64,000 nucleotides of DNA from a bacterium (GTDB taxonomy: Bacteria > SAR324 > XYD2-FULL-50-16), in contig JAVVEA010000006.1 of the NCBI GenBank assembly GCA_032250835.1, forward strand, positions 32,001 through 96,000, in the 5' to 3' direction. Positions 7,762-64,000 of the stretch are shown one piece after another. Position 1 is the stretch's first letter. Each line of letters begins with the position of its first letter. The notes beneath the pieces were generated by a model. The model had not been told where the DNA came from. It worked only from the letters and a program-made list of their open reading frames with translations, and ran no database searches. The translations under genes and the position numbers were made by a program.

Positions 7762-9693
7762 ATGGCAGGAGAAGCTCGCAGCAAAAAGGCCGCCAAGGCT
7801 TTAGGTCCCGTTGATCAGTTAGAAAAGCATTTGCACCCTGACTGGTGGAACCGGATTTTTAATTCCCTTTACTTAAAGACCGACGGCGACGTGGTCGAAG
7901 ATGCGCGGATCACGGACATGGAAGTGGACCGTTTTAGCGAACATCTGGGCTTAAAGGCCGGGGAACAGTTGCTGGATATCTGCTGTGGACAGGGGCGCCA
8001 CGTGTTGGAATGGGCCCACCGGGGTTTTGAGGTTTGCGGCATGGACCGTAGCCGTTATTTGATCCAAAAGGCCAAGAGCCGCGCCAAGGCGAAAAACCTA
8101 AACGTCTCCCTCAAAGAAGGCGACGCCCGCAAACTGCCCTTCACCACCGACCGCTTCGACGCGGTGACTTTGCTGGGCAACAGCTTTGGCTATTTTGAGT
8201 CCGCCTCTGAGGATTTATTGGTATTGCAAGAAGTCAAGCGGGTGCTTAAGCCCGGTGGACGTTTGCTGCTCGACGTCTCGGACGGTGAATTTTTGCGCCA
8301 AAGCTTTGAGCCCCGCTCTTGGGAATGGATCGATAAAAACCTGTTTGTTTGCCGCGAGCGTAGCATTGCCGGTGATGGCCAGCGTTTGATCAGCCGCGAG
8401 GTGATCACCGACGTAAAAAAGGGCGTCATTGCCGACCAATTTTATGCCGAGCGTCTCTACAGCCAGGCCGAACTGGGTGAATTGTTGGCTGAAGCAGGCT
8501 TTAGCGAAATTGAGTGGCATGGCGAGATGGTCCCCGAGAGCCAGCGCAACCAAGATTTGGGCATGATGAGCCGCCGCTTGGTGGTGACCGCCAAAATGGT
8601 TAAAGAATGGACCCCAGTCCGCCGCCGGTCTGCGGCGACCGCGCGCAAGGTGACCGTATTACTGGGCGACCCGCGTAAGCTGGACATCATCAAACCCGAT
8701 GCGGTCTTTGATGAAGACGACTTTGTGACCCTCAAGCGCCTTAAAGACGCCTTGGCCAACTTGGGCGACTTCCGCTTTAAGTACATTGACGACCATGACA
8801 CCATGATCGCTGAACTCAAGAAATTGAGCGGTAAAGACGAGCTGATTTTTAACCTTTGCGACGAGGGCTTCGGTAACGACCCGCGCCAGGAATTACACGT
8901 CCCGGCGTTGCTGGAATTATTTAATTTGCCCTACACCGGCTCGAACCCGCAGTGCCTGGCTTTTTGTTACGACAAATCGCTGGTCCGTGGTGCGGCCCGA
9001 GAGATGGGCGTGGCGGTGTCGCAGGCCTTTTTTGTGCGGCCCGATGACTCCATCTTCGAGTTGCCCATTGAGTTTCCGGTATTGATCAAGCCCAACTTTG
9101 GCGATTCCAGCTTTGGCATCACCCAAAAAAGCTTGGTTCATAACATGGAAGAGCTAGCTGCCGGTATCGCCCGCATCCGCGATATCCAAGGTTTCGAGAA
9201 GCCCTTTTTGGTGGAGGAGTTTTTGCCCGGTAAGGACATCAGTTTTGGGGTGATTGGCAACGCCGGCGACTTCCGCATCTTGCCGATCATTGAAGAAGAC
9301 TACTCGGGACTGCCCGAGGGATTGCCGCGGATCTGTGGTTATGAAGCTAAATGGCTGCCTGATTCGCCCTACTCCTGCATCCGCTCGATCCCGGCTAACC
9401 TGCCTTTGGATGTGGAAAAGGAAGTGATCGACGGGTCCTTGGCGCTTTTTGAGCGGCTTGAATGCCGCGATTACGCCCGTTTTGACTGGCGCTTGGATAA
9501 ACAGGGGCGCCCTCGGCTCTTGGAGGTGAATCCTAATCCCGGTTGGTGTTGGGACGGCCATTTGGCCAAGATGTCTCATTTGGAAAACATCGACTACTCG
9601 GCCATGTTGGGTTTGATCGTGGAAGCGGCCTTCAAACGCACCGACAGTGTGAGCGCCAAGAACTCGGCTCAGGTGATTGAAAGTCAGGGCTAA
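7762..9693 (+). CDS. Class I SAM methyltransferase fused to a D-Ala-D-Ala-ligase-like ATP-grasp domain
   Basis: N-terminal LLDICCGQGRH (SAM motif I); C-terminal PYTGS, LIKPNFGDSSFGI, LVEEFLPG, DYARFDWR and LEVNPNPG ATP-grasp motifs; RBS GAGGA. Confidence 0.85.
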   Translation: MAGEARSKKAAKALGPVDQLEKHLHPDWWNRIFNSLYLKTDGDVVEDARITDMEVDRFSEHLGLKAGEQLLDICCGQGRHVLEWAHRGFEVCGMDRSRYLIQKAKSRAKAKNLNVSLKEGDARKLPFTTDRFDAVTLLGNSFGYFESASEDLLVLQEVKRVLKPGGRLLLDVSDGEFLRQSFEPRSWEWIDKNLFVCRERSIAGDGQRLISREVITDVKKGVIADQFYAERLYSQAELGELLAEAGFSEIEWHGEMVPESQRNQDLGMMSRRLVVTAKMVKEWTPVRRRSAATARKVTVLLGDPRKLDIIKPDAVFDEDDFVTLKRLKDALANLGDFRFKYIDDHDTMIAELKKLSGKDELIFNLCDEGFGNDPRQELHVPALLELFNLPYTGSNPQCLAFCYDKSLVRGAAREMGVAVSQAFFVRPDDSIFELPIEFPVLIKPNFGDSSFGITQKSLVHNMEELAAGIARIRDIQGFEKPFLVEEFLPGKDISFGVIGNAGDFRILPIIEEDYSGLPEGLPRICGYEAKWLPDSPYSCIRSIPANLPLDVEKEVIDGSLALFERLECRDYARFDWRLDKQGRPRLLEVNPNPGWCWDGHLAKMSHLENIDYSAMLGLIVEAAFKRTDSVSAKNSAQVIESQG

Positions 9694-9799
9694 CCTTTTC
9701 GATTGGTTGCCGATTTATTGCGGGGCATGGTAGGCTCTTTCGAGCAGTCCGGTAAGGCAAACGGCCCGAACCGGACGGCTCTAATGAGGACCCAAACTT

Positions 9800-12700
9800 G
9801 TGACCACATCAAACCTGCCGCCTACCGAGCTGCTTTTTGACGCTCTGGAGGATCTTCTCTTTTTGACCGATTCCCAAGGCACGGTAACCCAGGCTAATCC
9901 GGCGGCTTTGGCTTTTTTGGGCCTAGGCGCTGAGCAAGCTTGCGGCCAGGACTTTGCCCAGTTGTTGGGCCTGAAACCCGGCCTGTTTGAAGCTTGCTTG
10001 TTACCGGAGTTTAAGGGCACCGAACTGCGGTTAAAACAAGGGCAGGAACATATCCTGTTTACATGCCACTGCAAGAGCCTGGGCGAAAGCTGGTTGATCC
10101 AACTGCACCAAGACGACGGCCCGGCCAGATGGCGTCTGCAAGAGGCCCAACGGCTAGCTAAAGTGGGGACTTGGTACCTCGACTTGACGCTGAACCAGTT
10201 GCATTGGTCCGACGAGTTGTTTCGACTCACCGACTTGGACCCTAAAAGGGACCTCCCGTTGAGTGTGGACCAACTGCTCGAAAGGGTCCATCCCGAGGAC
10301 CGCAACCAGATGTTGGAACGTTCCTTAAGGTTGCTTTCGGCGACCCAAGACGAGCCGCTCCCGCCGATTTCCCACCGGATACTTAAAGCAGACGGTTCTT
10401 ACCTACGCTGCAACCTCACCACCAAGATTCATTTTGATCCACAGGGGGTCCGGGTTGGCATCTCCGGCGCGGTCCAGGATATTTCGGATCAAGAGGCCTT
10501 GCACTTGAGCCAAGCCCGTTTGTCTAGGGCCCAGGCGATTGCCCATTTCGGGTATTGGCGGTGGGAAGCGGGGGATGAGGTTTACCAATGGTCTGAGGAA
10601 ATGTACCGAATCTTCGGCTTAGACCCTGCCCATTTTGAACCCAGACCAGAGGCCTTAGGCGCTCTGCTGGCTGGGCCGGATTCAGGGTCACTGGCGGCGC
10701 TCCTAGACCCGGCGAGTCTTAACCAAGCCGGCCATTTCGAGCTGGACTTGGCCATCAAGCAAAGTAGCGGCGCTCGCAAACAGATATTGGTACGTGGCGA
10801 GGCTTTGGCCGATCCGCAGGGCCAAGTTCGGGCCGTTGAAGGGGTGATGCTCGACGTAACCCAGCAGAAACAAACTGAAGCGACTTTGCGCGAGCGCGAA
10901 GCCCAATGGATTCAGGCGCAGCACATTGCCCATTTCGGCAGTTGGCATTGGGATTTGATCGCTGACCAGATCACCTGGTCCGAAGAGGTGTTTCGGATTT
11001 TTGGCCAACCGGCTGATTTTGTCCCCACCTACGCAGCCTATAAAGCCCAGGTGCACCCCTTAGACCGCGAATCGGTCGATCAAGCGGTCCAAAAAACCCT
11101 GAGAGAACACCAACCCTTTCGGGTGGAACACCGCATCCTCCTGCCCGATGGGAGCCAAAGGGATGTACTGGAACAAGGGGAGGTGACCTACGACGATCAA
11201 GGCCGGGCGGTGAGCTTTATGGGCGTTTCGCAAGACATTACGGAACGAAAAGAAGCAGAGCGCCGACTTAAGCTGCATGATTGGGAGTTAAACCGGGCCC
11301 AACAGGTTGCCCAGTTTGGGTCTTGGAGCAAAGGAGTCCGCGGCGGCGAATTGCGCTGGTCCGAAGAGTTTTACCGAATCTGCGGCATCGACCGGAACCA
11401 AAAGCCGGACAGTGCCTACTTCCGGTCTTTGATCCATGAGGAGGACCGTCATTATATTTCAGAGCTAGCCGACCAAATGGAGAGTGAGGTCCGTTCTGCC
11501 GCGGAGGTTTTTCGGTTGATACGACCTGATGGGCAGTTGATCTATCTGCGGAGCCAGTTGGAACAGGACTTAAGCGAAACCGGCCAGCCTTTGCGTCTTT
11601 TTGGCGTGATCCAGGACATTACCGCGCAAAAGGAGGCCCAAGCTCAGTTGCTAGAGTCCCGCAAAAACCTAGCAGAAGCCCAGTCAGTCGCCCATGTGGG
11701 GAGCTACCTGTTTGAATTAAAGACCGGGAAGCTAATTTGGTCCGATGAATTTTTCCGGCTCTTTGGTTTTGAGCCCGGTGAGGTGGAGCCAAGTCATGAG
11801 CTTTATTATGAACGGGTCCATCCTGAAGACCGGGAGTGGTTGGCCAAAATCTCCGCCGAGGCCTTAACGGGGCAGCAGACCCATAGCGAGCTGGTGCATC
11901 GGGTGTTGTTGCCCGACGGAACCCTGCGCTACCTACAGCTGCGCGGAAGGGTAGAGTTCGAACAGGGGCAAGCCATCAAAACCTGGGGCACCGCCCAGGA
12001 CATTACGGACTTAAAGGTCAAAGAACGAGAACTACAAGAGAGTCGTGAACTGCTGGAATTGGCTCAGTCCATGTCTCACCTGGGCAGTTGGATCATCGAA
12101 ATGCCGTCGATGAAGTCGATTTGGAGCAGCCAGATGCGGACCGTATTGGGCTTGGGGCCCGAGGTAGAGCCCAGTTTGGAGGCTTTCTTTGAGGTGCTGC
12201 ACCCTGAGGACACCCAAAACGTTAAAGAATACTTTGAAAAGAGCCTAGCGGACCCCGAGTTCCGAAAAGACGTAGAAATCCGTTTGCGCCGCCCCCAAGG
12301 GAAGTGGGCCTATGGATATCTGCGGGGCCGGGTGGTTTTTGAAGAGGGTCAACCGGTGCGGGCCATCGGTAGTTTGCAGGACATCACCGACCTCAAGGAG
12401 CTAGAAGTCCGTTACCGCTTGGTGAGCGGGCACTTGCACGACCTCATCTACCGGTACCGCCTGGACCCGCCGGGCTTTGAGTATGTCAGCCCATCGTCAA
12501 CCCAACTAACGGGCTACACGCCCGAGGAGCACTATGCCGATCCTAAGCTGGGCTATAAATTGGTCCATCCCGACGACCGCCACCTACTAGAACGGTTAAA
12601 TCACCCCGACCCGGATGTCCTGTCCGAACCCATAACCTTTCGCTGGGTCCGAAAAGATGGAGGAGTTTTTCACTGTGAGCAGCGCAACGCACCGGTTTAT

Positions 12701-62380: not shown

Positions 62381-62689
62381 GGGTATCGAGAGATTGTCGC
62401 GCATAACCTGGGCCCATTTCGGAGCGCCGGGAACCTAATTTCTTCACAATCATCTTAAAATCACAATTTATTTTGCGATTTTCTACATTGCGTTGCTTTG
62501 TCATTAGATTTTGAATTCTCTATTTATTGCGAAATTCATGGTTTCAAGGGCAGGCGACTCGAATCAAACACTATTTTTATCTCAGCAGCTTGACAATAAA
62601 ATATCCCTGTGAAATAAGATAACCGCCTGCGGGATGATTCGATTCCCATGGGTTTTTATTGTTTCATTTAACTTTTCAAAAGAGGAAAT

Positions 62690-62725
62690 ATGTACCCACC
62701 TGTGATTAAGCCTGAGGCTAAATAA
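62690..62725 (+). CDS. 11-aa micro-ORF MYPPVIKPEAK, candidate RiPP precursor or leader peptide
   Basis: AAGAGGAAAT immediately before ATG; 11-bp hairpin follows; lies upstream of tailoring-enzyme-like genes. Confidence 0.45.
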   Translation: MYPPVIKPEAK

Positions 62726-62736
62726 ATAACCAATAG

Positions 62737-62764
62737 CGTTTAGAGGCAGTTCCGCCTCTAAACG
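62737..62764 (+). other. Perfect 11-bp stem-loop between the micro-ORF and the oxygenase
   Basis: CGTTTAGAGGC-AGTTCC-GCCTCTAAACG. Confidence 0.75.
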
Positions 62765-62788
62765 TCTTAATACATTAAAATTCGTGAA

Positions 62789-63406
62789 ATGAACAAGTTG
62801 TATGCAGATTTGCAGCACAGGTTCGATGCCGCTGGTTTTTTGATATTGAAGGGTTCCGAGTTTTATTCCGACGCCCAATGGGAAATTATTGACGGCTATT
62901 CAAATCAAGTCAGCTACGAATCAGTCCAGAAGGGGCTGCAGAAAGACTCCGAATACGCGGCACATGTTGGCCGTATTGTCCTTGATGGGCCCACACCATC
63001 GGGAGAATACCTTCAGATCAACGAACCCGAAAACCTAGCCGATTGCAGCACAGAGCTTTTATGGACGATACTCAATCCTCGAGTACTCGCCGTTACCAGC
63101 GCCATTGCCTCCATTGACATCCCCAAGGTTCAAAGGTGCCAATACAACCTATTGAGATCTGGGGACCATATCGGAAAACATATCGATGCGCTGCACGGTA
63201 TTCCCTATGACCTTACCTTTGTACTCGGTCTAGAAGGAGACTACCAAGGTGGGATTTTTCAGCTTTATGGCCAAACCAACAGTGAGGTCTTTTTCCATAA
63301 AATTTCAGAAAAAGACCTAATAATTTTTAAAAGCCCTTTGCTGCATTCTGTTACCAAAGTATCAAGCGGCAAGAGGAAAACTCTTTGCTTATTTTTGAAA
63401 AAATAA
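62789..63406 (+). CDS. 2OG-Fe(II) oxygenase (prolyl-hydroxylase-like)
   Basis: HID...YQGG...LLHSV...GKRKT, matching HxD...H...R. Confidence 0.85.
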   Translation: MNKLYADLQHRFDAAGFLILKGSEFYSDAQWEIIDGYSNQVSYESVQKGLQKDSEYAAHVGRIVLDGPTPSGEYLQINEPENLADCSTELLWTILNPRVLAVTSAIASIDIPKVQRCQYNLLRSGDHIGKHIDALHGIPYDLTFVLGLEGDYQGGIFQLYGQTNSEVFFHKISEKDLIIFKSPLLHSVTKVSSGKRKTLCLFLKK

Positions 63407-63422
63407 ACTGTACGAGGAACCC

Positions 63423-64000
63423 TTGGACTTTATAATTTTTGTTCCCTTCCCTGACTATTGCTTTAGTCAAGACCCCCCTTGTTTAGGCGCCGGAAGTATC
63501 TCTGGTTATTTGAGCAGCAAAGGCTATGAAGCTTCCGTGGTGCCGGTGACTAGTGCAGACCTCCCCAATATTTCTCAAAATCAATGTGATATTATCGGGA
63601 TCAGTATTCTTGAGGATTCTTGGGAACTGGCGCAAAATATCGCCGCAATTTATCAAGCTCAAGGTAGCAAGGTAATCGCAGGCGGCGTATTCACCTCAGT
63701 TTGCCCAGAGGAGGTACTGCAAAGCGGTCTTTTTGATGCAGTCTGTATTGGAGATGGGGAATTAATCGCTCAAGTGTTCATTGAGCAAATTATGTCTGGC
63801 AGGCACGAGAACCTTAAAGGTTTGGTCTGGAACGATAAATATTTGGTTTCTGAGGCTCAGGATTTTTCCTACAACATACAAGAGGATCTTTCGTTATTCC
63901 AAAGTTCGGATTTTGGCTACAAATCATTTTTACCCATTAGTTCCTATTCAGATACTTCTCGAGTCATCTTAACGCCCCCTTCAGGCGACGAAACCGGTGC
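63423..64000 (+). CDS. Cobalamin-binding domain protein, probably B12-dependent radical SAM (3'-truncated by window)
   Basis: Manual translation from TTG 63423 after a GAGGA RBS is open to the window end: PPCLGAGSISGYL...DIIGISIL...KVIAGGVFTSVCPEEVL...FDAVCIGDGE. Confidence 0.8.
   Translation, partial: MDFIIFVPFPDYCFSQDPPCLGAGSISGYLSSKGYEASVVPVTSADLPNISQNQCDIIGISILEDSWELAQNIAAIYQAQGSKVIAGGVFTSVCPEEVLQSGLFDAVCIGDGELIAQVFIEQIMSGRHENLKGLVWNDKYLVSEAQDFSYNIQEDLSLFQSSDFGYKSFLPISSYSDTSRVILTPPSGDETG

Follow-up and report, generated by a model that had tools for sequence, protein, structure and literature searches.

A small island inserted between mutY and hisS, at the right end of a 64,000-nt stretch of the genome of a SAR324 bacterium (GenBank assembly GCA_032250835.1, contig JAVVEA010000006.1, positions 32,001 to 96,000 of the forward strand), probably represents a natural-product cluster of a new, minimal kind that makes a peptide. 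The stretch, which corresponds to G000:C40:32001-96000, is referred to as the window; the part of the island lying beyond it was analyzed in 20 kb read from C40:94000 (L002), for which L002 position + 61999 gives the window-equivalent position. The island contains, in this order, a Shine-Dalgarno (SD) sequence with an 11-codon open reading frame (micro-ORF), a hairpin, genes for a 2-oxoglutarate (2OG)-Fe(II) oxygenase, a B12-binding radical S-adenosylmethionine (rSAM) enzyme, and a ferritin-like diiron oxidase, and a BrnT/BrnA pair. Judged from sequence, the chances are about even that the encoded peptide, MYPPVIKPEAK, is the leaderless precursor of a minimal RiPP, a peptide made on the ribosome and modified after translation. 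The evidence is primarily comparative: small ORFs were found beside diiron oxidase homologues at all five loci with the needed flanking sequence (three of a type B and two of a type A, described below), and in each of these peptides, as in that of the window, Tyr is followed by Pro within one to four residues. The window peptide combines Tyr2 with three Pro residues and is encoded in a spacer with a GC content of 38%. As the diiron oxidase and a Tyr/Pro-containing small ORF recur together, and as the enzymes are exclusively of the tailoring type, the data are explained most simply if the substrates are the products of the small ORFs.

Micro-ORF and hairpin upstream of the enzyme genes

The left edge of the island is formed by an AT-rich leader (38% GC) at positions 62381 to 62689 of the + strand, which holds the hexamer TTGACA at 62590 to 62595. 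The SD-like sequence AAGAGGAAAT (62680 to 62689, + strand), with the core GAGG, abuts the ATG at 62690. The micro-ORF, a candidate leaderless precursor gene, spans positions 62690 to 62725 of the + strand including its TAA stop codon, and 63 nt separate it from the first enzyme gene downstream; among the spacer ORFs of 4 to 90 codons, it alone is preceded by an SD sequence. In this genome, an SD-like 4-mer occupies positions -14 to -5 in 27.8% of cases when the first ATG of each long ORF is considered (407 of 1466), compared with 5.0% for randomly sampled ATGs (86 of 1716). A second copy of the peptide was not found in the genome. The micro-ORF shares the frame of the oxygenase gene, and the idea that it is a frameshifted N terminus of the oxygenase was ruled out because two in-frame stops intervene (TAA at 62723 and TAG at 62741).

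The hairpin (62736 to 62765, + strand), detected both as an inverted repeat and by folding, begins 11 nt past the stop codon of the micro-ORF and ends 24 nt ahead of the oxygenase start. Its arms, CGTTTAGAGGC (62737 to 62747) and GCCTCTAAACG (62754 to 62764), form 11 perfect pairs, to which a G-U pair is added, resulting in 12 pairs enclosing a 6-nt loop. The hairpin folds with -19.8 kcal/mol, its paired arms are unique to this site in the genome, and the fold of the 125-nt leader has a z score of -3.04; unlike the micro-ORF taken alone, the hairpin is beyond chance. No Rfam families or tRNAs were found in scans of the leader and island (L002 1 to 5000). A preliminary description of this DNA, made from the letters and their ORFs, had reported the TTGACA, the ribosome-binding site directly before an 11-residue ORF, and the 11-bp perfect hairpin, and all three were found exactly there, the G-U pair extending the latter.

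A ferritin-like diiron oxidase as the third enzyme

The gene following that of the rSAM enzyme (L002 2883 to 3623, window-equivalent 64882 to 65622) encodes a protein that has no Pfam match, the AurF model included, and was assigned by alignment and structure modeling. Six putative diiron ligands do not vary among 31 aligned sequences, namely, E53, E83, H86, E132, E162, and H165, which follow the pattern E / ExxH / E / ExxH. The alignment-based model reached a predicted local distance difference test (pLDDT) value of 92.6 and was used for all comparisons, while a single-sequence model with a pLDDT of 39.8 was discarded. Superposition of 237 residues on R2lox (4hr0) gave a Z score of 22.6 and a root mean square deviation of 2.7. 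The TM scores obtained with Foldseek were 0.76 to 0.79, and sequence identities were 13 to 16%. Other fold matches comprised the R2 protein of ribonucleotide reductase, aldehyde-deformylating oxygenases, hydroxylases of multicomponent monooxygenases, and PaaA. The model thus identifies the third enzyme as a ferritin-like diiron-carboxylate oxidase with an R2lox/AurF-like fold.

Among 1.84 billion, 127 representatives of the diiron protein were detected at E values of ≤0.001 and 48 at ≤1e-10, and the gene is absent from all 18 same-family genomes searched. The nearest relative, P0123, is a hypothetical protein encoded on a plasmid of Trichormus variabilis NIES-23 and is 40 to 41% identical; another, P0124, is from Amycolatopsis. 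A maximum-likelihood tree calculated from 39 rows groups the window protein with P0123, P0124, and P0125 (support 100/98). This group is nested in a clade of 13 rows (100/94), to which the type B proteins belong as well, and the type A proteins are placed elsewhere in the family tree. A locus search with a three-row diiron alignment returned one genome locus, four metagenome loci, and no viral locus.

Several sets of matches were set aside. Those in the window's own phylum belong to an AurF-type subfamily of 360 to 410 aa found in unrelated contexts and form the outgroup of the tree. Diiron proteins of 360 to 495 aa recur in one family of this phylum (L045 to L050, from G033, G032, G077, G047, G043, and G055); three of the seven scanned pass the AurF model (PF11583), G055 has a tandem pair, and their neighbors are housekeeping-like. 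Two non-self matches among 401 Acidobacteriota genomes (frames of 484 and 332 aa) were likewise set aside, as were matches on Rhodococcus and Burkholderia plasmids (~370 aa) and in Nonomuraea (396-aa ORF), which represent another subfamily.

Small ORFs beside homologues of the diiron oxidase

The oxygenase and the rSAM enzyme are without comparable clusters elsewhere, and therefore the micro-ORF comparison was made through the diiron protein. Type B loci are plasmid borne and come from Pantoea agglomerans, Pantoea ananatis, and Xenorhabdus sp. TH1. Their operons start with genes for a major facilitator superfamily (MFS) protein, the diiron homologue, and a hypothetical protein of 200 aa and include a gene for a sterol-desaturase-family protein (three of three), before which both Pantoea operons carry additional PpnP-like and Gfo/Idh/MocA genes; an rSAM gene is absent from all three. 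In each case, an 8-codon ORF stands behind a strong SD sequence ~70 to 95 nt upstream of the annotated MFS start (L054 5694 to 5720, L055 5590 to 5616, and L056 5562 to 5588, on NZ_CP134742.1, NZ_CP081343.1, and NZ_CP147735.1). It encodes MDYQPLAV in both Pantoea plasmids and MDYQPLAS in Xenorhabdus, and it is missing from the plasmid gene tables shown. Between P. agglomerans and Xenorhabdus, 21 of the 27 ORF positions are identical, compared with 48 of 128 in the upstream flank and 36 of 92 in the downstream flank, and codons 5 to 7 differ synonymously only; the two Pantoea ORFs are identical (27/27) within operon DNA that is 82% identical. This pattern of substitutions indicates that the type B ORF evolves as a coding sequence.

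As in the window, the type B ORFs are followed by a hairpin, here of 13 to 14 pairs, in which the Xenorhabdus stem differs from that of Pantoea by compensatory changes. The distance from stop codon to stem is 11 nt in the window and in Pantoea and ~22 to 24 nt in Xenorhabdus, and the first gene starts 14 to ~20 nt past the stem, compared with 24 nt at the window locus. The layout is otherwise the same, with SD sequence, micro-ORF, hairpin, and operon following one another. The type B 200-aa hypothetical protein was considered as a counterpart of the oxygenase and rejected (BLASTP E value of 1.5, no Pfam match), and an apparent 7-codon second ORF in Pantoea proved to be merely the 3' arm of the hairpin. 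Type B DNA was not found in the E. coli genomes searched. In the literature searched, outside whose scope subscription journals lay, neither the type B peptide string nor a named Pantoea product of the operon was found, the latter search returning unrelated fungal work only.

Type A loci, which resemble the clavusporin cluster, were found in a metagenome-assembled genome of Terriglobia (L017 7902 to 10927) and on a metagenome contig (L019 5956 to 10676). A further match, L018, agrees with L019 in all match figures and was treated as the same sequence, and L020 and L021 end within the diiron gene. In type A, an SD-preceded small ORF of 51 codons (L017) or 39 codons (L019) directly follows the diiron gene. 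The encoded peptides consist of a short leader, the segment RYQYIVPVP or RYFLPPRPP, and an acidic tail; this architecture matches that described in the accessible text for the published precursor MpcA, in which Arg, a hydrophobic core that includes Pro, and an acidic follower succeed one another (bioRxiv 10.1101/2024.01.23.576971). The small ORF is followed by a 14-pair hairpin in L019 (z score of -4.38) and by none in L017 (z score of -0.29). The rSAM enzymes of both loci pass TIGR03975 (487 and 561 bits; cutoff, 281.85) and are 48% identical to one another; in L019, a DUF5825 gene and then an MFS gene follow the rSAM gene. The L017 rSAM gene is read in two frames (9038 to 10447 and 10484 to 10927), a sign of a frameshift or of faulty assembly. 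The L019 DUF5825 protein was rejected as a relative of the oxygenase, as it shows no similarity. A predicted complex of the L019 diiron protein with its 39-residue peptide scored 0.02 against a mark of 0.32, which counts neither way. The type A loci also extend clavusporin-like clusters beyond the Actinobacteria-only set given in the accessible text of the preprint, and they carry an extra diiron gene.

The preliminary description had named a conserved short ORF upstream of homologous clusters as a check. Such small ORFs do stand beside the diiron relatives, whereas the oxygenase and rSAM enzyme, through which they were to be sought, have no orthologous clusters.

The oxygenase and the B12-binding radical SAM enzyme

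The 205-aa oxygenase (62789 to 63406, + strand) matches PF13640 with 31.9 bits (cutoff, 27) over residues 118 to 202, and its translation shows the iron-binding HxD motif (H-I-D) with a later His and a distal basic residue (K/R). By embedding and predicted structure, the protein resembles generic PF13640 clusters of ~200 aa from bacteria and phages. A 30%-identical homologue (200 aa, PF13640) is encoded beside a nonribosomal peptide synthetase (NRPS) module in Streptomyces; since this sole informative relative adjoins an NRPS, the window oxygenase may well work in amino acid or peptide chemistry. The Streptomyces locus, on plasmid NZ_CP108509.1 of Streptomyces sp. NBC_01237 (L068 134 to 6447), unites a condensation-adenylation-thiolation-thioesterase (C-A-T-TE) NRPS module, an MFS protein, an amidinotransferase-like protein, and the PF13640 oxygenase; the feature table shown for it lists no features in that stretch.

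The rSAM gene starts at 63423 and runs on the + strand past the window end at 64000 to L002 2758 (window-equivalent 64757), so that 192 of its 444 codons lie within the window. Its product contains a B12-binding domain (PF02310, 51.2 bits) and a Radical_SAM domain (PF04055, 78.3 bits), and the CX3CX2C motif is located just past the window end. Both enzyme assignments of the preliminary description, which had listed the 2OG-Fe(II) oxygenase and a B12-binding ORF from 63423 and had looked to contig extension for CxxxCxxC, therefore hold. No curated NCBIfam subfamily is reached by the rSAM enzyme, and PADLOC and PHROGs gave generic 2OG and rSAM matches only. Of the 12 B12-rSAM matches in the genome, one is the island gene, eight are on contig C22, and the other three are on C1, C5, and C12. 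The eight paralogues are clustered between ~8 and 96 kb of C22, which may represent a large lipid or peptide modification locus.

Insertion of the island and its remaining genes

In this genome, ~4.5 kb separates mutY from hisS, compared with ~180 to 255 bp in the two nearest relatives, whose mutY is 56% and 52% identical; hisS was seen in these 2 of 18 relatives' loci, the remainder extending ≤1.5 kb past mutY. Over exactly this block, the GC content drops from ~0.60 to 0.37 to 0.45, and the GC content at third codon positions (GC3) is 0.42 to 0.53 for the island genes (0.43 to 0.53 for the three enzyme genes) versus 0.67 to 0.76 for mutY, hisS, and hemA. To the right, the island is followed by hisS, hemA, and hemC. 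Given the GC dip, the low GC3, and the mutY-hisS adjacency in relatives, the block is an insertion, and the island was horizontally acquired. No direct repeats flanking it were found, and a search for sequencing runs containing the island listed none, of RNA or otherwise.

At its right end, on the - strand, lies a BrnA/BrnT pair (L002 4095 to 4702, window-equivalent 66094 to 66701) recognized by profile matches; the BrnA-like protein matches CopG_antitoxin with 36.5 bits, the BrnT-like match of 22.3 bits is under the cutoff, and the pair may serve as an addiction module. The 470-bp gap after the diiron gene contains a 46-codon ORF with a GTG start and no SD sequence (L002 3742 to 3882, window-equivalent 65741 to 65881), which also starts with M-Y-P, probably a coincidence.

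Gene reading and Pfam identified no transporter, peptidase, regulator, or scaffold-building enzyme among the island proteins, nor are there genes for lipid, sugar, or nucleoside metabolism on the island. With no scaffold enzyme, transporter, or peptidase present, the substrate must therefore be either island encoded or host derived. Of the tailoring, transport, and peptidase genes that were to be sought farther along the contig, the diiron oxidase was the one found; a downstream shift to a non-peptide pathway, also considered beforehand, was not observed, as an oxidative enzyme and then a toxin-antitoxin pair follow.

Weighing of alternative explanations

Several observations weigh against MYPPVIKPEAK being a precursor. 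The Tyr/Pro likeness of the peptides was recognized post hoc, and in an alignment of five peptides only the Met and one Pro are invariant. The loci are few and not all independent, type B being represented by three records, two of them the 82%-identical Pantoea operons, and type A by two, and no orthologue of the window cluster was found among the relatives compared. In 5000 dinucleotide shuffles of the 408-nt spacer, an SD-preceded ATG ORF of 5 to 40 codons appeared in 17.6%, so that the micro-ORF alone is not beyond chance; an ORF of this type with at least three Pro codons appeared in 0.94%, by a criterion picked after the peptide was known. A consensus scan for promoters returned five sites, none of them at the TTGACA, which has no -10 partner, and an SD site is absent before the oxygenase ATG. 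A word-indexed search of 5.8 billion proteins gave 123 candidate relatives of the oxygenase, of which the self-match alone held, and the best relative of the rSAM enzyme is 30% identical. The latter scores 56.4 bits against TIGR03975 and thus does not reach this RiPP methyltransferase family, whose cutoff of 281.85 is exceeded by no match in the genome; with its CX3CX2C motif and 20% identity to the type A rSAM enzymes, it is not of the MpcB type. DUF5825 (PF19142) was not matched in the genome by a search that gave no match in control genomes either and is thus unvalidated, and Pfam detected no such domain on the island proteins. For the three enzymes, Pfam returned catalytic domains only and hence no domain of the RiPP recognition element (RRE) type. 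Consequently, the RiPP-like cluster proposed in the preliminary description is supported in part: the features listed there and the recurrent small ORFs speak for it, and the lack of an RRE, a peptidase, and an exporter speaks against it. The lack of a leader and an RRE weakens the RiPP reading without excluding it, because leaderless minimal RiPPs are known, as far as the accessible texts describe them.

The alternative that survives best, although we consider it rather unlikely, is that the micro-ORF arose by chance in an AT-rich promoter region, that the imported cassette modifies a host metabolite, lipid, or macromolecule, and that the hairpin serves as a palindrome bound by a protein or as an element of stability. 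The shuffle rate of the micro-ORF agrees with this, as does an island devoid of exporter and peptidase genes. The best NCBIfam match of the rSAM enzyme is the lipid biosynthesis family TIGR04072, albeit well under the cutoff (98.6 versus 360 bits), the R2lox, aldehyde-deformylating oxygenase, and PaaA folds bind fatty acid-like or acyl ligands, and host substrates for B12-rSAM enzymes may exist, since the genome has 11 further matches. However, an accidental ORF would not readily account for the succession of SD sequence, ORF, hairpin, and operon in all three type B loci with its coding-type conservation, nor for three Pro residues, rare in the shuffles even if chosen post hoc. Furthermore, a conserved host substrate is not implied, because the diiron gene is missing from the 18 same-family genomes, and no island gene ties the cassette to lipid, sugar, or nucleoside metabolism.

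That the micro-ORF encodes a regulatory leader peptide, with ribosome stalling and the hairpin setting the expression of enzymes that act elsewhere, appears improbable to us. The anatomy is that of leader control as in erm, cat, and trp, where an SD sequence, a short ORF, and a stable hairpin precede an operon, and type B operons open with an MFS gene, a class often controlled in this way. The amino acid-level conservation of the type B ORF would equally suit an arrest peptide, and the two consecutive Pro residues of MYPPVIKPEAK could slow ribosomes by polyproline stalling. The details of the leader fit less well. The hairpin is not followed by a T-run on the + strand and was scored as terminator-like on the - strand only, and the next start codon is left uncovered, the hairpin ending 24 nt short of it here and 14 to ~20 nt short in type B. 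The gap between stop codon and stem varies from 11 to ~22 to 24 nt, so that a ribosome terminating there would hardly come into contact with the stem. The minimum free energy (MFE) folds, which may miss such an interaction, did not show the ORF in alternative pairing with the arms of the hairpin. In type A, moreover, the small ORF lies inside the operon and has the RiPP precursor architecture described in the accessible text of the clavusporin preprint, and the combination of this enzyme with a Tyr/Pro peptide is common to three differing operons, which is unexpected for a regulator.

Proposed mechanism and significance

If MYPPVIKPEAK is a precursor, the micro-ORF would be translated from its own SD sequence, and the peptide would serve as the substrate. 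The hairpin might stabilize or partly terminate a short transcript, so that more message would be made for the peptide than for the enzymes, and the three enzymes would then tailor the peptide. The diiron oxidase, as the sole part common to the small-ORF operons, would most likely hydroxylate or radical-couple the Tyr on the N-terminal side. Generation of tyrosyl radicals is a property of R2-type proteins, and a cross-link between Tyr and Val is formed in R2lox. The 2OG oxygenase, which is similar to prolyl 4-hydroxylase (P4H), could hydroxylate a side chain, with Pro as the obvious candidate, and the B12-rSAM enzyme could C-methylate Pro, Val, or Ile, as MpcB does, or introduce a cross-link, as PbsB does. 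The assignment of Pro hydroxylation and C-methylation is based on family resemblance.

Going further, these loci may belong to an undescribed class of minimal RiPPs, a proposal to which we assign somewhat less than an even chance. In this class, a ferritin-like diiron oxidase of ~250 aa would act on leaderless peptides of 8 to 11 residues with a Tyr near the N terminus, longer Arg-Tyr precursors would play the same role in mpc-like clusters, and plasmids and small islands would carry the system from phylum to phylum (Enterobacterales, Acidobacteriota, and the present genome, and probably both Cyanobacteria and Actinomycetota). The window locus would be its unique three-enzyme variant, which adds a P4H-like oxygenase and a B12-rSAM enzyme, neither with a relative on record. 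Genes of 8 to 11 codons escape annotation, and in the literature searched, as far as the texts were accessible, the biarylitides are the only RiPP family with comparably small precursors. If the proposal is correct, the rare diiron family (127 representatives among 1.84 billion) would provide a handle for mining minimal peptide products, and ferritin-like diiron chemistry would join the repertoire of peptide tailoring. A direct test is possible in Pantoea and Xenorhabdus, of which strains with the sister operon are in culture, and the window cluster is a three-enzyme cassette of ~3.3 kb fit for heterologous expression.

Comparison with known systems

Ultra-short precursors are known from the biarylitides, for which the accessible texts describe a five-residue, Tyr-containing, leaderless precursor that is missed by gene callers and is modified by a cytochrome P450 (PMC12951456, PMC13417212, PMC12002111). 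The window locus shares with them, as described there, an ultra-short Tyr precursor gene directly upstream of a tailoring enzyme. It differs in that the island has diiron, 2OG, and B12-rSAM enzymes and no P450, in that the peptide has 11 residues (8 in type B) rather than 5, and in that a hairpin lies between the peptide gene and the enzyme genes.

The clavusporin cluster, mpc, comprises according to the accessible text the precursor MpcA, the B12-rSAM enzyme MpcB (CX7CX2C), the DUF5825 protein MpcC, an S9 peptidase, and an MFS protein; MpcB and MpcC methylate Pro, Val, Ile, and Thr residues of a 13-mer core, which is released by cleavage after an Arg of a 39-mer that has an acidic follower, and 228 precursors are listed (bioRxiv 10.1101/2024.01.23.576971). 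As far as this text allows comparison, both systems pair a B12-rSAM enzyme with a small, Pro/Val/Ile-rich, Lys-containing peptide, and relatives of the window diiron protein are encoded within mpc-like loci, immediately ahead of the candidate precursor gene. The window rSAM enzyme, however, has a CX3CX2C rather than a CX7CX2C motif and stays below TIGR03975 (56.4 versus 281.85 bits), the island has no peptidase or MFS gene, no DUF5825 match was obtained in the genome search, in which the controls were silent as well, and the window peptide has no leader, Arg cleavage site, or acidic follower.

In the pbs pathway to biphenomycin-like peptides, again as far as the accessible text goes, aromatic residues are hydroxylated by a multi-iron oxidase, a different residue is the target of a cupin-like hydroxylase, and the final step, C-C cross-linking, is due to a B12-rSAM enzyme (PMC12257519). 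The logic of the window cluster, with an iron oxidase, a hydroxylase, and a B12-rSAM enzyme for one peptide, would be the same. The iron enzyme of pbs, by contrast, is a multinuclear nonheme iron-dependent oxidase (MNIO; DUF692), a TIM barrel with an RRE partner and not a ferritin-like four-helix bundle, and in the same text its precursors carry leaders as well as a conserved FHAFRF-type motif, and an arginase and a protease are present. In the literature covered, with subscription journals again beyond its scope, no link of a ferritin-like diiron enzyme to RiPPs was found; the searches returned work on MNIO/DUF692 and related topics.

The attenuators of erm and cat resemble the window leader in having an SD sequence and a very short ORF with a stable hairpin before the operon; the window leader differs in its lack of a U-tract, its uncovered next start codon, and the absence of alternative pairing in the MFE folds. 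With R2lox and AurF, the third enzyme shares the fold and the six ligands, at an identity of 13 to 16% and outside any Pfam family; the AurF proteins of the same phylum differ in their size of 360 to 410 aa, their housekeeping-like contexts, and their outgroup position. Thus, while ultra-short RiPP precursors are already known, the enzyme set encoded on the island is new, and the window locus is the sole member of this exact composition on record.

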